Source: Paracoccaceae bacterium
GTDB lineage: Bacteria > Pseudomonadota > Alphaproteobacteria > Rhodobacterales > Rhodobacteraceae
Direction: 5' to 3'
Assembly: GCA_047610385.1 (NCBI GenBank)
Contig: JBLGAC010000008.1
Coordinates: 23,455-87,454 of the forward strand
DNA: 64,000 bases
How positions within the stretch are numbered: the first letter of the stretch is position 1; every line of letters starts with the position of its first letter. A program made the position numbers and the translations under genes. Below the pieces are notes generated by a model. The model had not been told where the DNA came from. It did not search any database and saw nothing but the letters and a program-made list of their open reading frames with translations. Of the stretch, positions 4,391 to 31,099 are shown in pieces.

Positions 4391-4828
4391 TCAGTGTTCG
4401 TCGGGCGCCGCATCGCTGGGTGCCGCATCGTCAGGCGCTTCGACATCGGCGCGCACGCGGTCCAGGTTCAGCAGGCGTCGCGCTTCGTCCATACGGTCGT
4501 AGCTGTCATCGCGCTGAAAGCTCAGGTCCGGCGAGAATTTCATGTTGACGTCTTTGCTCAGCGCACGCCGCAGCTCACCTTTGTTGCGGCGCAGGGCTTC
4601 GATCACCTCGTCGGCGTTGATGCCGCCCAAAGGCAGCACAAAAGCCGTTGCGCTGCGCAGATCGGGCGTGACGCGGACCTCCGACACCGTGATCGACGCG
4701 CGCGACAGCGCATCATCATGCAGATCGCCGCGCAACAGAATCTCAGCCAGCGACCGGCGGATGGTTTCGCCTACCTTGAGCTGCCGCTGCGAGGGGCCAG
4801 CGCCGCCCCCGGTCGGTTTCTTGGCCAT
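4391..4828 (-). CDS. rbfA: Ribosome-binding factor A
   Basis: [19 protein letters not shown]...[17 protein letters not shown]...PDLSFQRD. Confidence 0.95.
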
Positions 4829-17786: not shown

Positions 17787-18566
17787 TCAGACGCGGCGTT
17801 CAACCATCATTTTCTTGATCTCAGCGATGGATTTCGCCGGGTTCAGGCCCTTCGGGCAGGTCTTGGCGCAGTTCATGATCGTGTGGCAGCGGTACAGCCG
17901 GAACGGGTCTTCGAGGAAATCGAGCCGTTCCTGCGACGCCTCATCCCGGCTGTCGACCAGCCAGCGATAGGCGTGCAGCAGCGCGGCTGGGCCAAGATAC
18001 CGATCGCTGTTCCACCAGTAGCTGGGGCACGAGGTCGAGCAGCAGGCGCACATCACACATTCATACACGCCATCGAGCTTTTTGCGGTCCTCGATCGACT
18101 GCAGCCATTCCTTTTCAGGGCGGGCGGTCTTGGTTTCAAGCCAAGGCATGGTCGCGGCGTGCTGCGCGTAAAAATGCGTCAGGTCTGGGACCAAGTCCTT
18201 GATCACTTCCATATGCGGCAGCGGATAGATTTTGACGTCGCCTTTGACCTCATCCAACCCATAAATGCAGGCCAGCGTGTTGATCCCGTCAATGTTCATG
18301 GCACAGGACCCGCAGATGCCTTCACGGCACGAGCGGCGGAAGGTCAGGGTCGGGTCGATCTCATTCTTGATCTTGACCAGCGCGTCCAGAACCATCGGGC
18401 CACACTTGTCCATATCAACATGATACGTGTCGATCCGCGGGTTTTTACCGCTGTCGGGATCATAACGATAGACCTTGAAGGCGCGCACATTGGTGGCGCC
18501 CTGCGGCTTCGGCCAAGTCTTGCCGACTGTCATACGGGAATTCTTCGGCAGCTGGAATTCGGCCAT
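17787..18566 (-). CDS. sdhB: Succinate dehydrogenase iron-sulfur subunit
   Basis: [45 protein letters not shown]. Confidence 0.98.
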
Positions 18567-18605: not shown

Positions 18606-19367
18606 TCAGTTGGTCGGCGCTGCGGGTTTGCGCGCCAGGAAAATCTTTTCGCCGCGGTGAAGGGCGTGGTCGCCCACCATCGGCTCAGTCGCGGCAAAGA
18701 CGGTCAGGTCGAACCCGGCGGCGCGGATGCGGTCGGCGAAATCACGGCCATACATGCGCAGATGGTCGGGGTCGGTGGCGCGCAAGGCGCGGTCTTCGGC
18801 GCTGGCATCGGGCAGCTCCAGCGTCTTGTCCCAGCCTTCGACCAGCGGCACGGTCAGCACTGCCAGCCCGCCAGGGGCCAGGATGCGGGCCATTTCCGCC
18901 AGCGCCGCCGCGTCGTCCACATGTTCAAGCACATGGTTCGCGATCACCGCATCAAACGTCCCGTCAGCCACCCCATTCATCGCCGTGATGTCGATGGTTA
19001 GGTCATAGTCGTCATGGATGTCGGCGGTCAGATACGCCGCAACGCGGGGTCGGATCAGCGCGGACAGCGCAGATTCGGCGGCGAAATGCAGCACGCGGGC
19101 GCCTTTCAGCGCGCTTGGATCGCTGGCCAGCCACAGCGCAAACAGGCGGTGCCGCGGGCGGCTGTCGCAGTTCGGGCACCAGATGGCGGGCTTGTGGCGC
19201 ACCGGGCTGAAGCGCCCCACATAACCGCAGATCGGGCAGGTTTTCACTGGCCCACCATGCGTCAGCGCGGTGAAATGGTCCACAGCCCGCCGGGCGCGCA
19301 GGTCAAGAACCTGCGCGATGTCCGCATGTGTGCGGGCAAGAGGGGTTCCGGGGGCGGTGGGTTTCAT
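18606..19367 (-). CDS. Class I SAM-dependent methyltransferase with an N-terminal CxxC...CxxC ribbon
   Basis: CPICG...CPNCDSRPRHR, VLHFAAE, FDAVIANHVLEHV, EMARILAPGG. Confidence 0.85.
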   Translation of the reverse strand: MKPTAPGTPLARTHADIAQVLDLRARRAVDHFTALTHGGPVKTCPICGYVGRFSPVRHKPAIWCPNCDSRPRHRLFALWLASDPSALKGARVLHFAAESALSALIRPRVAAYLTADIHDDYDLTIDITAMNGVADGTFDAVIANHVLEHVDDAAALAEMARILAPGGLAVLTVPLVEGWDKTLELPDASAEDRALRATDPDHLRMYGRDFADRIRAAGFDLTVFAATEPMVGDHALHRGEKIFLARKPAAPTN

Positions 19368-21169
19368 CAGAAGGTGCGGACCTTGGGTGCGATGCGCTTC
19401 AGGGCGATGCCGCCTTCGGCCTCGGTGGTCAGCGGATCGACGATGACGGGGCGGTGGCTCAGGGTCACTGATGCGCCATCGACGCGGCTGATGGTGTGCA
19501 CGCGCCAGTTTTCATCATCGCGGGTTGGGTGGTCTTCGTGGGCATGGGCACCGCGGCTTTCGGTGCGGGCCTCAGCGCCGACGATGGTCGCCAGCGCGTT
19601 GGGCATCAGGTTCGCCAGCTCCAGCGTCTCCATAAGGTCGGAGTTCCAGATCAGGCTGCGGTCGGTCACCTTGATGTCGGCCATCTTGCCGGCGATGGCG
19701 GTCATCTTTTCCACGCCTTCGGACAGGGTCTTGGAGGCGCGGAACACCGCGGCATCCGACTGCATGGTTTTCTGCATCTCAAGGCGCAATTCAGCGGTCG
19801 GGATCGCGCCGTCTGCATAGCGCAGGGCGTCGAGACGGTCGAACGCCTTGTCGATCGCGGCCTTGGGCGCTTTGGGAACAGCGGTGTCGGGGTCCAGCAC
19901 CTTGCCCGCGCGGATCGCCGCGGCGCGGCCGAACACCACCAGATCGATCAGCGAGTTCGATCCGAGACGGTTCGCGCCATGCACCGATGCGCAGCCCGCC
20001 TCGCCGACAGCCATCAGGCCGGGGACCACGGCATTGCCGTTATCTGCGGTCGGGTTCAGCACTTCGCCCCAATAATTGGTGGGGATGCCGCCCATGTTAT
20101 AGTGCACGGTGGGCAGAACTGGGATCGCCTCTTTGGTCAGATCAACGCCTGCGAAGATGCGCGCGGATTCTGAAATCCCCGGCAAACGCAGCGCCAGAAC
20201 CTCAGGCGGCAGGTGGTTGAGGTTCAGGTGGATGTGATCGCCATGTTCCCCGACGCCGCGGCCTTCGCGGATCTCCATCGTCATGCAGCGCGAGACGTAA
20301 TCGCGCGGCGCGAGGTCTTTGTAGTTGGGCGCATAGCGCTCCATGAACCGCTCACCCTCAGAGTTCGTCAGGTATCCACCCTCGCCGCGCGCACCTTCGG
20401 TGATCAGGCAGCCTGACCCGTAGATGCCGGTGGGGTGGAACTGCACGAACTCCATGTCCTGCAGCGCCAGACCCGCGCGGGCAACCATGCCGCCGCCATC
20501 GCCAGTGCAGGTGTGCGCCGAGGTGGCCGAGAAATACGCGCGTCCGTAGCCGCCGGTGGCCAGCACGACCGTTTTGGCGTTGAACACATGCATGGTGCCG
20601 TCATCAAGCTTCCAGCACAGGACGCCCTTGCACACGCCATCTTCCATCAGCAGGTCGATGGCGAAATATTCGATGTAGAATTCCGCATTGTGCTTCAGCG
20701 ACTGGCCATAAAGCGTGTGCAGAATTGCATGGCCGGTGCGGTCCGCCGCGGCGCAGGTGCGCTGCACGGGCGGGCCTTCGCCAAATTCAGTGGTGTGGCC
20801 GCCGAAGGGACGCTGGTAGATCTTGCCTTCTTCGGTGCGAGAGAAGGGCACGCCGTAATGCTCCAGCTCATACACCGCCTTGGGGGCTTCACGCGCCAGA
20901 TATTCCATGGCGTCGGTGTCGCCCAGCCAGTCTGATCCCTTGACGGTGTCGAACATGTGCCACTGCCAGTTGTCCGGGCCCATGTTGGACAGCGACGCTG
21001 CGATGCCGCCCTGGGCGGCGACCGTGTGGCTGCGGGTCGGGAACACTTTGGTGACGCAGGCGGTTTTCAGCCCCTGCTCAGCCATGCCGAGGGTGGCGCG
21101 CAGGCCCGCGCCACCGGCGCCGACCACGACCACGTCATAGTTGTGCTCGGTATATTCGTATGCGGCCAT
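19367..21169 (-). CDS. sdhA: Succinate dehydrogenase flavoprotein subunit
   Basis: [19 protein letters not shown] (FAD-His), [17 protein letters not shown]. Confidence 0.98.
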
Positions 21170-21261: not shown

Positions 21262-21642
21262 TCAGCCGCCGAACGCAATCTTCATGACAGCGAAGATGCC
21301 CGTCAGGCCGAACAGGCCGCAGAACATGATGTTCCCCAGCAGCGCCGCGGTGCGGATGCCCTTATGGTGAACATAGTCCTCAATCACCACTTGCAAGCCG
21401 AGCTGCATGTGGCGGAACACGATTGCGATGAACAGGACCGCGACGATGGCATGGAACGGGTTTTCATAGGTCGACCGCGCCGCTTCATAGTCCTGGCCCA
21501 GTGACTGCCCGAAGGGCGCCACGAACAGCACCGTCAGGGGGATCAGCGCCACCGCGGTGACCCGCTGGAGCCACCAGTGATGCGTGCCGTCTTTCGCAGA
21601 ACCGAGGCCGGTGACCTTGGCGCGGGGGGTTTTATAGCTCAT
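21262..21642 (-). CDS. sdhD: Succinate dehydrogenase membrane anchor subunit
   Basis: [22 protein letters not shown]...[15 protein letters not shown]. Confidence 0.96.
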
Positions 21643-21667: not shown

Positions 21668-22054
21668 TCAGGCCGCGATGACCCAGGTCATCAGCGTCAG
21701 TGCGCCCGAAGCGACCAACACGATCTGACCGGAGAACGTGACCTGCTCCATCTCAAAGCCGTAGCCGAGATCCCACCACAGGTGCCGGATGCCGTTGCAA
21801 AAATGAAAGGCCAGCGCCCAGGTGGAACCCATCATGATCAGCGTGCCGACCCAGCTGGTGACGATCCCGTCGGCGAAGGCGAAATATTCAGGCCCTGAGG
21901 CCGCGGCCAGCAGCCACCACACCGTCAGAGCTGCGCCAAGCGCGAGTCCCACGCCGGTCGCCCGGTGCAGGATCGACAGCACTGAGGTGATCTGCGGGCG
22001 ATACACCTGCAGGTGCGGTGAAAGGGGGCGGCTGCCCCGGTTGACGTCTGCCAT
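21668..22054 (-). CDS. sdhC: Succinate dehydrogenase cytochrome b556 subunit
   Basis: RPLSPHLQVYRPQITSVLSILHRATG...HFCNGIRHLWWD. Confidence 0.96.
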   Translation of the reverse strand: MADVNRGSRPLSPHLQVYRPQITSVLSILHRATGVGLALGAALTVWWLLAAASGPEYFAFADGIVTSWVGTLIMMGSTWALAFHFCNGIRHLWWDLGYGFEMEQVTFSGQIVLVASGALTLMTWVIAA

Positions 22055-22171
22055 GCTTTTCCCCTGACGATCGAGTGCGGGCGCAAACTGCGCCGCGCGA
22101 GGATATTCGTCGCAGCGGGGGCGGGGGCCTAGGGCCGTCGGGCCTGCGCTCCACCACATCCGCGCGGTGTC

Positions 22172-22200
22172 TCTATAACAGGGGGCACTTGCGTTTCCAA
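22172..22200 (-). promoter_or_regulatory. sigma70-like promoter of sdhCDAB
   Basis: Minus strand TTGGAA-N17-TATAGA. Confidence 0.5.
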
Positions 22201-22281
22201 AGGGGCGCAGGTGCTTTAGCGGCGTTTTCACGCGGGTCATGGTGCGGCGTCTGTGGAAAATTTCAAGCTTTCGACGCAGTT

Positions 22282-22331
22282 TGTGATCACACGCGCAGGG
22301 CTGTGATCACAGCCATATGGTTGTGATCACA
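22282..22331. promoter_or_regulatory. Triple palindromic operator-like array TGTGATCACA, 20-bp period
   Basis: Exact copies at 22282, 22302 and 22322 in the mch-sdhC intergenic region. Confidence 0.8.
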
Positions 22332-22391
22332 AATCGTGCGACGGACAGGCATTCCACACAGAATCAATCAAGAATACCGCGCCGCGCCAGA

Positions 22392-23450
22392 TCACATCGG
22401 GATCAACGCCCAGATGTCGAGGTCCAGCAGCACGCCCGGCGCATATTTGCCGTCCTCGGTGCGCAAGGGGCCGGGGGCCGGATCGTCCTTGACCGCCACC
22501 AGCCGCAGACGCAGCGCGCCGACACCGGGGGCGGCTGTCTCAGCCTTGTCCAGCACCTCGGACCACGCATAGATCGTGTCGCCTGCAAAACACGGTGCCA
22601 CATGGGCCCCGGCATTGATCGCCGCCACGGTCTGCGCGTTGGCCAGCCCGTTGAAGCTGAGCGCGCGGGCCAGGCTGATGACATGCCCGCCATAGATCAG
22701 GCGCTGGCCGCCGTCGCGCGCCTGTTTGTTGAAATGCACTTTGGCGGTGTTTTGCCAAAGGCGGGTGGCCATCATGTGCTCAGCCTCTTCGATGGTGACG
22801 CCATCCACATGGTCGATCCGTTCCCCCACCGCATAGTCGCCCCAGCGATGTGGCTCCCCAGCGGCGGTGAAATCATAGGTGGTGAAATCGAGGCCTGACC
22901 GGATCGCCAGCTCGCCGGGGTCCACCACGTGGGCAAGATCAGGCACCACAGTTTCGGGCGTGGGCGCGGCGGCGTCGCGTTTCCGGACCATCACCCAGCG
23001 CGCCCAGGTCAGCACCGGCGTGCCGGTCTGGTTTACGGCGGTGGAGCGGACATAAACCACCCCGGTCTTGCCGTTGGAGTTCTGCTTGAGGCCGATGACC
23101 TCCGAGCTGGTCGAGATCGTGTCGCCGGAATAGACGGGCGCAAGGAACCGGCATTCGGCATAGCCAAGGTTCGCCACTGCGTTCAGTGAAATGTCAGGCA
23201 CGGTTTTGCCGAACGCGATGTGGAACGCGGCCAGATCCTCAAGTGGGCTTTTCGGAAGGCCTGACGCCCGCGCGAATTCATCTGACGACCACAGCGCAAA
23301 GCGCGACGGATACAGCGCGCCATACAGCGCCCGGTCCCCGTCAGTCACTGTTCGAGGGGTGGCGTGGGGCAGGATCTGCCCGATCGCAAAATCCTCAAAG
23401 AAATTGCCTGGGTTGGTCTTGGCACCAGAGGCGGTGGAATGATCTGTCAT
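22392..23450 (-). CDS. mch: Double MaoC-like hot-dog dehydratase, probable mesaconyl-CoA hydratase (ethylmalonyl-CoA pathway)
   Basis: KTNPGNFFEDF, GKTVPDISLNAVANLGYA, RLWQNTAKVHF; position upstream of sdhC as in Rhodobacter. Confidence 0.85.
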   Translation of the reverse strand: MTDHSTASGAKTNPGNFFEDFAIGQILPHATPRTVTDGDRALYGALYPSRFALWSSDEFARASGLPKSPLEDLAAFHIAFGKTVPDISLNAVANLGYAECRFLAPVYSGDTISTSSEVIGLKQNSNGKTGVVYVRSTAVNQTGTPVLTWARWVMVRKRDAAAPTPETVVPDLAHVVDPGELAIRSGLDFTTYDFTAAGEPHRWGDYAVGERIDHVDGVTIEEAEHMMATRLWQNTAKVHFNKQARDGGQRLIYGGHVISLARALSFNGLANAQTVAAINAGAHVAPCFAGDTIYAWSEVLDKAETAAPGVGALRLRLVAVKDDPAPGPLRTEDGKYAPGVLLDLDIWALIPM

Positions 23451-23741
23451 GATTGCACCTTGTCGCGAAACTATATTGCGGTGCACCATAGCGGCGTCCG
23501 GCGTGGGCGCAAGCGCTGCGCGGTCACGGGCCACGGGGACAGGTGCGCAACGCCAACCCGCGCCGCTGGACCGGGCGGTGCCAAGCGCGTGGCGGTGATG
23601 GCGGCGCGTCCCTTCGGCGGGGTGCTCTCCCGCCCGTCGACGACCTGGCGGCCGCCTCCCGTTGGGCGGGGCGCCGCGCGCCGGGGGCTGGTAGGGGCGG
23701 CGGGTGAGGCACCCGCGCGGCGAGACATCGGGCGGCGCGCG

Positions 23742-23945
23742 TCAGAGCTGCCCGAGCTTCACCTCAGGCGCATACTCGGCCTCGACCTCCTTGGTCACGG
23801 CTTGGCCGCAGCGCACCACGCCGCGGGCCGCATCGAAGGCCATGGTGGGGGTGCCATACAGCACCCAGCCCTTGCTCAGCGCTTCGGTCACCTTGTGGCA
23901 GAAGGTGGATGTGTCGTCCTCGGTCAGCAGTCGATATGCGATCAT
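23742..23945 (-). CDS. DUF1737 family small protein
   Basis: YRLLTEDDTSTFCHKVTEALSKGWVLYGTP...CGQAVTKE. Confidence 0.85.
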   Translation of the reverse strand: MIAYRLLTEDDTSTFCHKVTEALSKGWVLYGTPTMAFDAARGVVRCGQAVTKEVEAEYAPEVKLGQL

Positions 23946-29853: not shown

Positions 29854-30738
29854 TCAGCCCAGATCGGCCTCCAACGCGCTGATCGCTGCGGCAAGCGCCA
29901 GCTGACGGTTCGCGGTCTCCACATGCAGGTTTTCGACGATCTTGCCGTCGACCACGGCGACCGCCTCACCTTTGGCGCGTGTGTCTTCGAACGCCGCCAC
30001 CTGACGCGCGGCCAGATCCAGATCGGCGGCGGATGGCGCAAAGACCTCGTTGGTCACGGCAAGCTGCAGGGGGTGGATCAGCGTCTTGCCGTCGAAGCCC
30101 ATCGCCAGACCTTGCTCACATGATGTGCGCAGCCCCGCGTCGTCCTTGTAGGCGTTGTAGACCCCGTCAATGCACGCCAGCCCATAGGCTTTGGCCGCAA
30201 GCAGGCAGATGCCCAGCGACGTGATCACTGGCTGGCGGTCGTCGGTGTGGCGGGCGTTCAGGTCTTTGACCAGATCATTGGTGCCCAGGATGAAGCAGGT
30301 CAGCCGCGGCGACTGCGCGATCGCCTGCGCGTTCAGGATGCCGAGCGGCGTTTCCATCATCGCCCAGATTGCGGTGCGTGCGGGGGCACCGGCCTCGTCC
30401 ATGATTGCGGCGACGGCGGCGATGTCTGCGGGTGAATTGACCTTGGGGATCAAGATTGCGTCAGGGCCCGCGGCGGCGGCGGCACGCACGTCCGCATCGC
30501 CCCAAAGGGTGTCGAGGCCGTTGACGCGGATGATCACCTCACGCTTGCCGAACGCCTTGGCGCGCACTTTCGCGGCGACCAGATCGCGGGCGAGGTCCTT
30601 TTCAGTCGGGCCAACCGCATCCTCAAGATCAAGGATCAGCGCGTCGGCGGGCAGGCCAGCGGCCTTTTCCAGCGCGCGCGTCTTGGCGCCCGGCATGTAA
30701 AGAACGGAACGGCGCGGACGGACGGGGGCGTCGGACAT
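29854..30738 (-). CDS. mcl2: HpcH/CitE-family CoA ester lyase, probable (3S)-malyl-CoA thioesterase Mcl2
   Basis: RRSVLYMPG...ALEKA...LILDLEDAV, AMMETP, LGTNDL, GFDGKTLIHP; synteny with nnrU-DUF1737-mch-sdh. Confidence 0.75.
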   Translation of the reverse strand: MSDAPVRPRRSVLYMPGAKTRALEKAAGLPADALILDLEDAVGPTEKDLARDLVAAKVRAKAFGKREVIIRVNGLDTLWGDADVRAAAAAGPDAILIPKVNSPADIAAVAAIMDEAGAPARTAIWAMMETPLGILNAQAIAQSPRLTCFILGTNDLVKDLNARHTDDRQPVITSLGICLLAAKAYGLACIDGVYNAYKDDAGLRTSCEQGLAMGFDGKTLIHPLQLAVTNEVFAPSAADLDLAARQVAAFEDTRAKGEAVAVVDGKIVENLHVETANRQLALAAAISALEADLG

Positions 30739-31099
30739 GAAGGACCTTTCGGGCAAGCGTTGACCGGGCAGGGCGTAGCGGAGTTTTCGCACCTGCGCAA
30801 GAAAATGTCGTGGCACATCATCGCAGCGATGCATCCTGTCGACGCCGCGTTGCGCGAGGTAACCAAATGCTAACCGAAATGCGCGATGGTCCCGTTATGG
30901 CCGCACGGCGTCTGAGGATCGGGGACCCCCCGAGTTTCGGCGCATCACGTCGGCGGCGCGGGGCAATGCAGGGCCCCCGCCCAAATGACGGCGCGCGGAT
31001 GAAGCAGTCCTTGAAACTCGCACCGGCGCTGATCGCGCTGTGGGCGCACGGGATCTTCCGTCGCCCCGGCCCGGCCGCCCGGAATCGGGAGCGTACGAA

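Follow-up and report, generated by a model that had tools for sequence, protein, structure and literature searches.

The DNA analysed here is a 64-kb stretch (the window) of a draft genome of 4.09 Mb with a G+C content of 64.6%. On its minus strand it carries the succinate dehydrogenase genes, with sdhC first in the operon, and the upstream neighbour of sdhC is a gene for a mesaconyl-CoA hydratase-like protein, the stop codon of which is separated from sdhC by a gap of 337 bp (Table 1). The stop codon of the 253-amino-acid ORF between sdhA and sdhB has been described as overlapping the end of sdhA, and in Rhodobacter (Cereibacter) sphaeroides 2.4.1 the place of this ORF is taken by two small ORFs of 106 and 92 amino acids. 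The sdh operon is flanked by genes that resemble ethylmalonyl-CoA pathway genes, namely the mch-like gene and an ORF at 29854-30756 (minus strand) that, judged from its translation, resembles the malyl-CoA lyase/HpcH family. Just upstream of the mch-like gene, at 23500-23800, the G+C content rises to 0.78-0.81, compared with 0.65 genome-wide.

Table 1. Features of the sdh locus (window coordinates)
Feature	Position	Strand	Remarks
sdhB	17787..18566	-	parted from sdhA by the methyltransferase-domain ORF
253-aa ORF	18606-19367	-	SAM-methyltransferase domains PF13489 and PF08241; between sdhA and sdhB
sdhA	19367..21169	-	83.5% identity to the R. sphaeroides-type SdhA of record L114
sdhD	21262..21642	-	
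sdhC	21668..22054	-	first gene of the operon; ATG at 22054; 49% identity to R. sphaeroides SdhC
Promoter candidate TTGGAA-N17-TATAGA	22173..22201	-	sequence read; 81-131 bp from the palindrome sites
AkgR-type site 1	22282..22291	.	TGTGATCACA; closest to sdhC; AAA flank on the sdh-coding strand
AkgR-type site 2 (central, extra)	22299..22314	.	16-bp palindrome GGCTGTGATCACAGCC; core 22302-22311
AkgR-type site 3 (distal)	22321..22332	.	12-bp TTGTGATCACAA; core 22322-22331; TTT flank on the sdh-coding strand
mch-like gene (mesaconyl-CoA hydratase-like, MaoC)	22392..23450	-	upstream neighbour; stop codon 61 bp from site 3

The gap between the two genes holds three exact copies of the 10-bp palindrome TGTGATCACA, the only ones in the window. 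They lie upstream of sdhC, 228 to 278 bp from its start codon, and recur at an exact 20-bp period, with an N12 spacer between the GTGATCAC cores twice over. At 236 to 276 bp from the ATG, the sites are farther out than in most relatives (120 to 200 bp). Shuffling of the window gave an expectation of 0.03 copies, and three copies were reached in none of 100 shuffles. The two spacers are unrelated to one another. The middle copy is embedded in a 16-bp palindrome and the third in a 12-bp palindrome, and the word CCATATGG lies between them at 22313-22320. The three palindromes and their period, the unrelated spacers and the extended middle and third copies had been described in an earlier, sequence-only reading of the locus, and an exact count together with a fresh read of the sequence bore them out. 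The flanks of the outer sites agree with the consensus sequences of the relatives described below, the AAA of site 1 with that of the proximal site (GTGATCACAAA) and the TTT of site 3 with that of the distal site (TTTGTGATCAC).

The same reading had placed a promoter candidate, TTGGAA-N17-TATAGA, 80 to 130 bp from the palindromes. The element is indeed present at 22201-22173, but it failed a sigma-70 consensus scan, and its assignment as a promoter therefore stays a guess; neither that scan nor a terminator scan made any call in the sdh or suc upstream regions. If the candidate is real, the centres of the sites would lie about 120 to 160 bp upstream of the transcription start.

We then considered how the motif is distributed in the host genome, where TGTGATCACA has 14 exact copies, compared with ~1.4 expected. 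The 8-bp core GTGATCAC has 191, compared with ~44 expected, an excess that arises in part because the codons GTG-ATC-AC(N) encode Val-Ile-Thr. Two single copies of TGTGATCACA, at C2:22279 and C58:22812, were rejected as sites, being codons for Ile-Val-Ile-Thr inside genes, and another, at C2:67596, is also within a gene. A search of the whole genome for two GTGATCAC cores 15 to 26 bp apart, with one mismatch at most over the pair, yielded only two intergenic clusters, the sdh array and a region upstream of sucC. The latter has two copies 21 bp apart (N13; C5:74707/74728), ~200 bp upstream of sucC, and no co-directional gene lies upstream of it. The expectation that a genome-wide search would find clusters at other TCA-cycle promoters was thus borne out by this single further case, and the two clusters, as sequence features, point to a small TCA-cycle regulon.

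Such a regulon has been described. AkgR (RSP_0981), a GntR-family regulator of R. sphaeroides, was mapped by chromatin immunoprecipitation sequencing (ChIP-seq) to sites with the common motif GTGATCAC (Imam, Noguera and Donohue 2015, mBio 6:e02461-14; PMC4323418). In that organism two copies with a 13-nucleotide spacer, GTGATCAC-N13-GTGATCAC, occur only at the sucCDAB and sdh promoters, which showed the highest AkgR enrichment (58- and 84-fold, versus 3- to 8-fold at single sites); AkgR activates these two operons and no others (PMC4323418). The paired arrangement was predicted to be typical of the regions upstream of sucCDAB and/or sdh in the Rhodobacterales, and in some species further candidate sites were predicted for akgR itself, a class-III aminotransferase gene and puuC (PMC4323418). 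A literature search on the literal 10-mer TGTGATCACA had returned nothing relevant.

To relate the host to R. sphaeroides at the level of the regulator, we worked from the published sites. The exact published 29-mer matched one record of a metagenome collection (L114), the SdhB of which is identical to the SdhB of R. sphaeroides 2.4.1 chromosome 1 (CP000143.2; L115). A scan for the same 29-mer over 400 family genera, with up to two mismatches allowed, gave no match. On CP000143.2 the order is mch, a CceR site abutting two AkgR sites, sdhC, sdhD, sdhA, two small ORFs and sdhB, followed by a gene for 120 amino acids and then by a GntR/FCD gene for 216 amino acids (L115:7524-8174). We identified the last of these as RSP_0981 by gene order and counting (RSP_0974-9 being the six genes of the sdh operon), not by locus tag.

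The host genome has 18 GntR-family matches, one of which, P0001 (G000:C12:70131-70829), has the domain architecture of the FadR subfamily, an N-terminal GntR winged helix (PF00392, E 1.9e-13) followed by a C-terminal ligand-binding FCD domain (PF07729, E 4.6e-17). P0001 is 65% identical to the R. sphaeroides GntR/FCD protein over 204 residues (E 7e-93), and the two are reciprocal best hits (4e-81, versus 1e-13 for the next GntR paralog); no close paralog of P0001 was found in its own genome. A related-locus search with P0001 returned close relatives only, R. sphaeroides not among them, and the best 120 homologues had generic names only. The closest match in the PDB is 4p9f, Escherichia coli McbR/YncC (E 2e-17), which has the same GntR plus FCD architecture as P0001 but low sequence similarity to it and a different effector and regulon. 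FadR-subfamily GntR regulators are dimeric and bind short palindromes with a GT...AC signature; to our knowledge, no structure of AkgR or of an AkgR-DNA complex exists.

The sdh array thus has the palindromic core of the AkgR sites in three exact copies. Adjacent cores are about 13 nucleotides apart, the N12 at sdh being a 1-nucleotide deviation from the published N13; paired sites precede only sdh and sucCDAB, and the genome encodes an RSP_0981 ortholog. Since motif, arrangement, target operons and taxon all match, we regard the array as part of the regulon already described, and we predict that the three palindromes are, very probably, the operators of the AkgR ortholog of the host, P0001. 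The proposal that no known regulator fits and that an uncharacterised TCA-cycle regulator may act here is not supported, given that the published AkgR site matches and that the ortholog is encoded; the sequence-only reading had itself named a match to an already curated regulon as grounds for giving the proposal up, and the AkgR regulon is such a match (PMC4323418). Its broader claim, that the sites are putative operators of a TCA-cycle regulator, survives in the agreement of the motif with the AkgR site before sdh and sucCDAB.

If the sites belong to AkgR, sites and regulator might be expected to go together. We searched 25 relatives for the regions upstream of sdh and suc and for the best homolog of P0001. 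Paired sites were present before sucC in 12 of the 13 same-family relatives examined for this region (there were 14 matches, that of G007 being counted as shifted, and none from G401, a same-genus draft that is 57% complete) and between mch and sdhC in 9 of the 11 from which the sdh region was recovered. The ortholog, at 61 to 86% identity, was found in all site-bearing relatives except G013, the genome of which is 63% complete, so that it is present in 12 of 13 site-bearing genomes and absent from 10 of 10 without sites. Two members of the family, G003 and G008, have neither the ortholog nor either array, and the same is true of all eight genomes outside the family that yielded sdh or suc regions; in a ninth, G409, no search produced a match. 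Synteny of mch and sdh is kept in relatives, including several genomes outside the family that are without AkgR sites.

The 26 paired arrays share an invariant 8-mer, GTGATCAC, at a spacing of 20 or 21 bp, while the spacers are unrelated. At sdh the spacing is 20 bp in seven genomes (nine adjacent pairs) and 21 bp in six; at suc it is 21 bp in 12 genomes and 20 bp in one. The composite consensus of the 26 arrays consists of TTTGTGATCACAC, an A/T-rich spacer and GTGATCACAAA, and the outer T/A of the pentamers varies, being T at 21 of the 26 distal sites and at 16 of the 26 proximal ones. Conservation of the sdh array at the orthologous position extends to 12 other genomes. Phylogenetic footprinting of sdhC, which had been suggested as a check, shows position and spacing kept in relatives while the spacer sequence changes.

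What sets the array in the window apart is its third, central site. A three-site sdh array was found only in the window genome and in the same-genus G119 ("Rhodovulum sp. DZ06"), which is the one same-genus relative from which the sdh region was recovered; G119 preserves the three cores and the 20-bp period, and its spacers differ from those of the window genome. The central site is missing from three Albimonas species, which have two sdh sites at 20 bp, and from eight other family members. The outer sites have the TTT and AAA flanks typical of arrays with two sites, so the 16-bp palindrome in the middle looks like an added element. By sequence comparison, then, the array looks functional, but it is an ordinary case of a known regulon, slightly elaborated in this genus, and calls for no new regulator.

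Compared with R. sphaeroides 2.4.1, the likenesses are close. The core is identical (the sdh sites there are caTGTGATCACAgg and ctTGTGATCACAtg), one array lies between mch and sdhC and a second before sucC, the regulators are orthologous, and the sites are spaced about two helical turns apart in both. There are also differences. The window has three in-phase sites at sdh, whereas R. sphaeroides has two, and the sdh spacer is 12 nucleotides rather than 13; the spacers here are G+C rich, in contrast to the A/T-rich spacer common in relatives; and the array is 236 to 276 bp from the sdhC ATG, as against 149 to 170 bp. In R. sphaeroides (L115:2600-2660) a CceR site, CATGATTGCGCAAACATGT, directly adjoins the distal AkgR site, whereas a loose scan of window positions 22056-22391 for the CceR motif, (Y)GTT-N6-AAC(W), found no credible site beside the array. 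The akgR gene of R. sphaeroides is two genes past sdhB, whereas here it is on another contig, beside genes of the agmatinase family and for a class-III aminotransferase.

In vivo binding and activation by AkgR were established in R. sphaeroides (PMC4323418). By analogy, we suggest that one dimer of the AkgR ortholog would bind each GTGATCAC palindrome. With sites 20 to 21 bp apart, close to two turns of the helix, the dimers would share one face of the DNA and may bind cooperatively; a prediction of dimers on one face had already been made from the two-turn phasing, and the 20-bp period supports it. Dimers bound upstream of the promoter would be expected to activate transcription of sdhCDAB, as in R. 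sphaeroides, and the two-site array before sucC would likewise serve the activation of sucCDAB. A high flux through the TCA cycle from 2-oxoglutarate to fumarate is the expected trigger.

Could the similarity to AkgR sites be misleading? The three sites at N12, where the published arrangement is two at N13, and the fact that the direct binding evidence comes from R. sphaeroides and not from the host, leave some room for a different, still uncharacterised regulator that binds TGTGATCACA here, the AkgR match being coincidental. We think this very unlikely, in that the core, the two operons and the taxonomic order are all those of the AkgR regulon, a reciprocal-best-hit AkgR ortholog is present, and ortholog and sites co-occur across the 25 relatives. 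In addition, both 20- and 21-bp spacings occur in relatives, and the suc array of the host itself is N13. The palindromes could instead act as RNA, forming hairpins in the 3' end of mch or in a long sdh leader, with a role in processing, stability or termination. They do lie on the strand of mch, 61 to 110 nucleotides past its stop codon, and a 130-nucleotide stretch folds better than its shuffles (-49.3 kcal/mol, z = -2.9), a favourable fold that follows from the presence of three identical self-complementary words. Against such a role, there is no U-tract and no terminator call, only the 8-bp core and the spacing are conserved, with no compensatory changes in stems, and similar arrays occur before sucC, where an upstream co-directional gene is absent; moreover, ChIP-seq in R. 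sphaeroides detected protein binding at the DNA level (PMC4323418). An Rfam scan gave no credible match (only mir-274, 19.9 bits versus a gathering score of 56, E 0.31), and we judge a function at the RNA level to be very unlikely.

Both pentamers of the CRP half-site are present in the 10-mer, and the half-sites had been equated with TGTGA/TCACA at zero spacer, which is what the sequence reads. CRP sites have a 6-bp spacer (TGTGA-N6-TCACA), and FNR sites have a 4-bp spacer (TTGAT-N4-ATCAA). With a spacer of zero and outer pentamer positions that are not conserved, the array was rejected as a member of this class, and the resemblance appears incidental: the unit conserved in relatives is the invariant GTGATCAC and not the pentamer, the outer T/A of which varies, and the phyletic pattern tracks the GntR/FCD gene, so that the regulator associated with the sites is GntR-type. 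An invariant GTGATCAC with a variable outer T/A fits an operator of a GntR/FadR-type regulator, and we give almost no credence to binding by a CRP/FNR-family protein. Nor do we see more than the slightest chance that the array is a product of coincidence or a repeat-element artefact; GTGATCAC is over-represented genome-wide, but the three copies are intergenic and have an exact 20-bp period (0 of 100 shuffles reached three), and this explanation is refuted by the 12 other genomes in which the array is conserved at the orthologous position.

Assignment of the array to the AkgR ortholog extends the published regulon to an Albimonas-related lineage, which has little import beyond annotation. The phyletic co-occurrence confirms that AkgR goes together with its paired sites, and the operator appears to tolerate 20- or 21-bp phasing and to be able to gain a third in-phase site. 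The three-site array might offer a natural case in which to test how GntR/FadR-type activators cooperate, and the central, genus-specific site may have a functional effect.

A single TGTGATCACA also lies outside the window at G000:C12:70057-70066 (L001:4058-4067), ~65 bp before the start of P0001, in a gap common to the P0001 gene and a divergent agmatinase-family gene; the P0001 gene is in turn followed by a gene for a class-III aminotransferase. The single core before the gene of the ortholog is kept in 13 of 14 close relatives, which suggests that P0001 may be autoregulated and may be linked to guanidino-compound/polyamine catabolism. Such catabolism feeds succinate and consumes 2-oxoglutarate. 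P0001 sits between the agmatinase-family and class-III aminotransferase genes with a shared single site. It is possible, although we consider it doubtful, that three AkgR dimers on one face of the DNA would give a steeper or stronger response at sdh than at the two-site suc promoter and that, in addition, the AkgR ortholog, given these neighbours, would couple this catabolism to the TCA-cycle steps from 2-oxoglutarate to fumarate.

The surroundings of the ortholog differ among relatives. In a Rhodobacter sp. metagenome-assembled genome it directly adjoins sucCDAB-lpd. In Albimonas donghaensis (L004; NZ_FNMZ01000003.1, 2500-12200), 14 GTGATCAC cores lie within 20 kb around the AkgR ortholog, those at 4517, 8911/8937 (26 bp apart) and 9966 being intergenic, and the predicted local AkgR regulon appears to be much larger there than in the window genome.

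Finally, the znuA-zur intergenic gap of the host, outside the window at G000:C2:20986 (L102:1087), carries cTTGTGATCACAAt. The znu locus of G119 (L108:3045) has TGTTATAACA, which is Zur-box-like and differs from the 10-mer of the host by two symmetric changes. The word in the host gap is either a Zur box that has drifted onto the AkgR word or a true cross-regulatory site.
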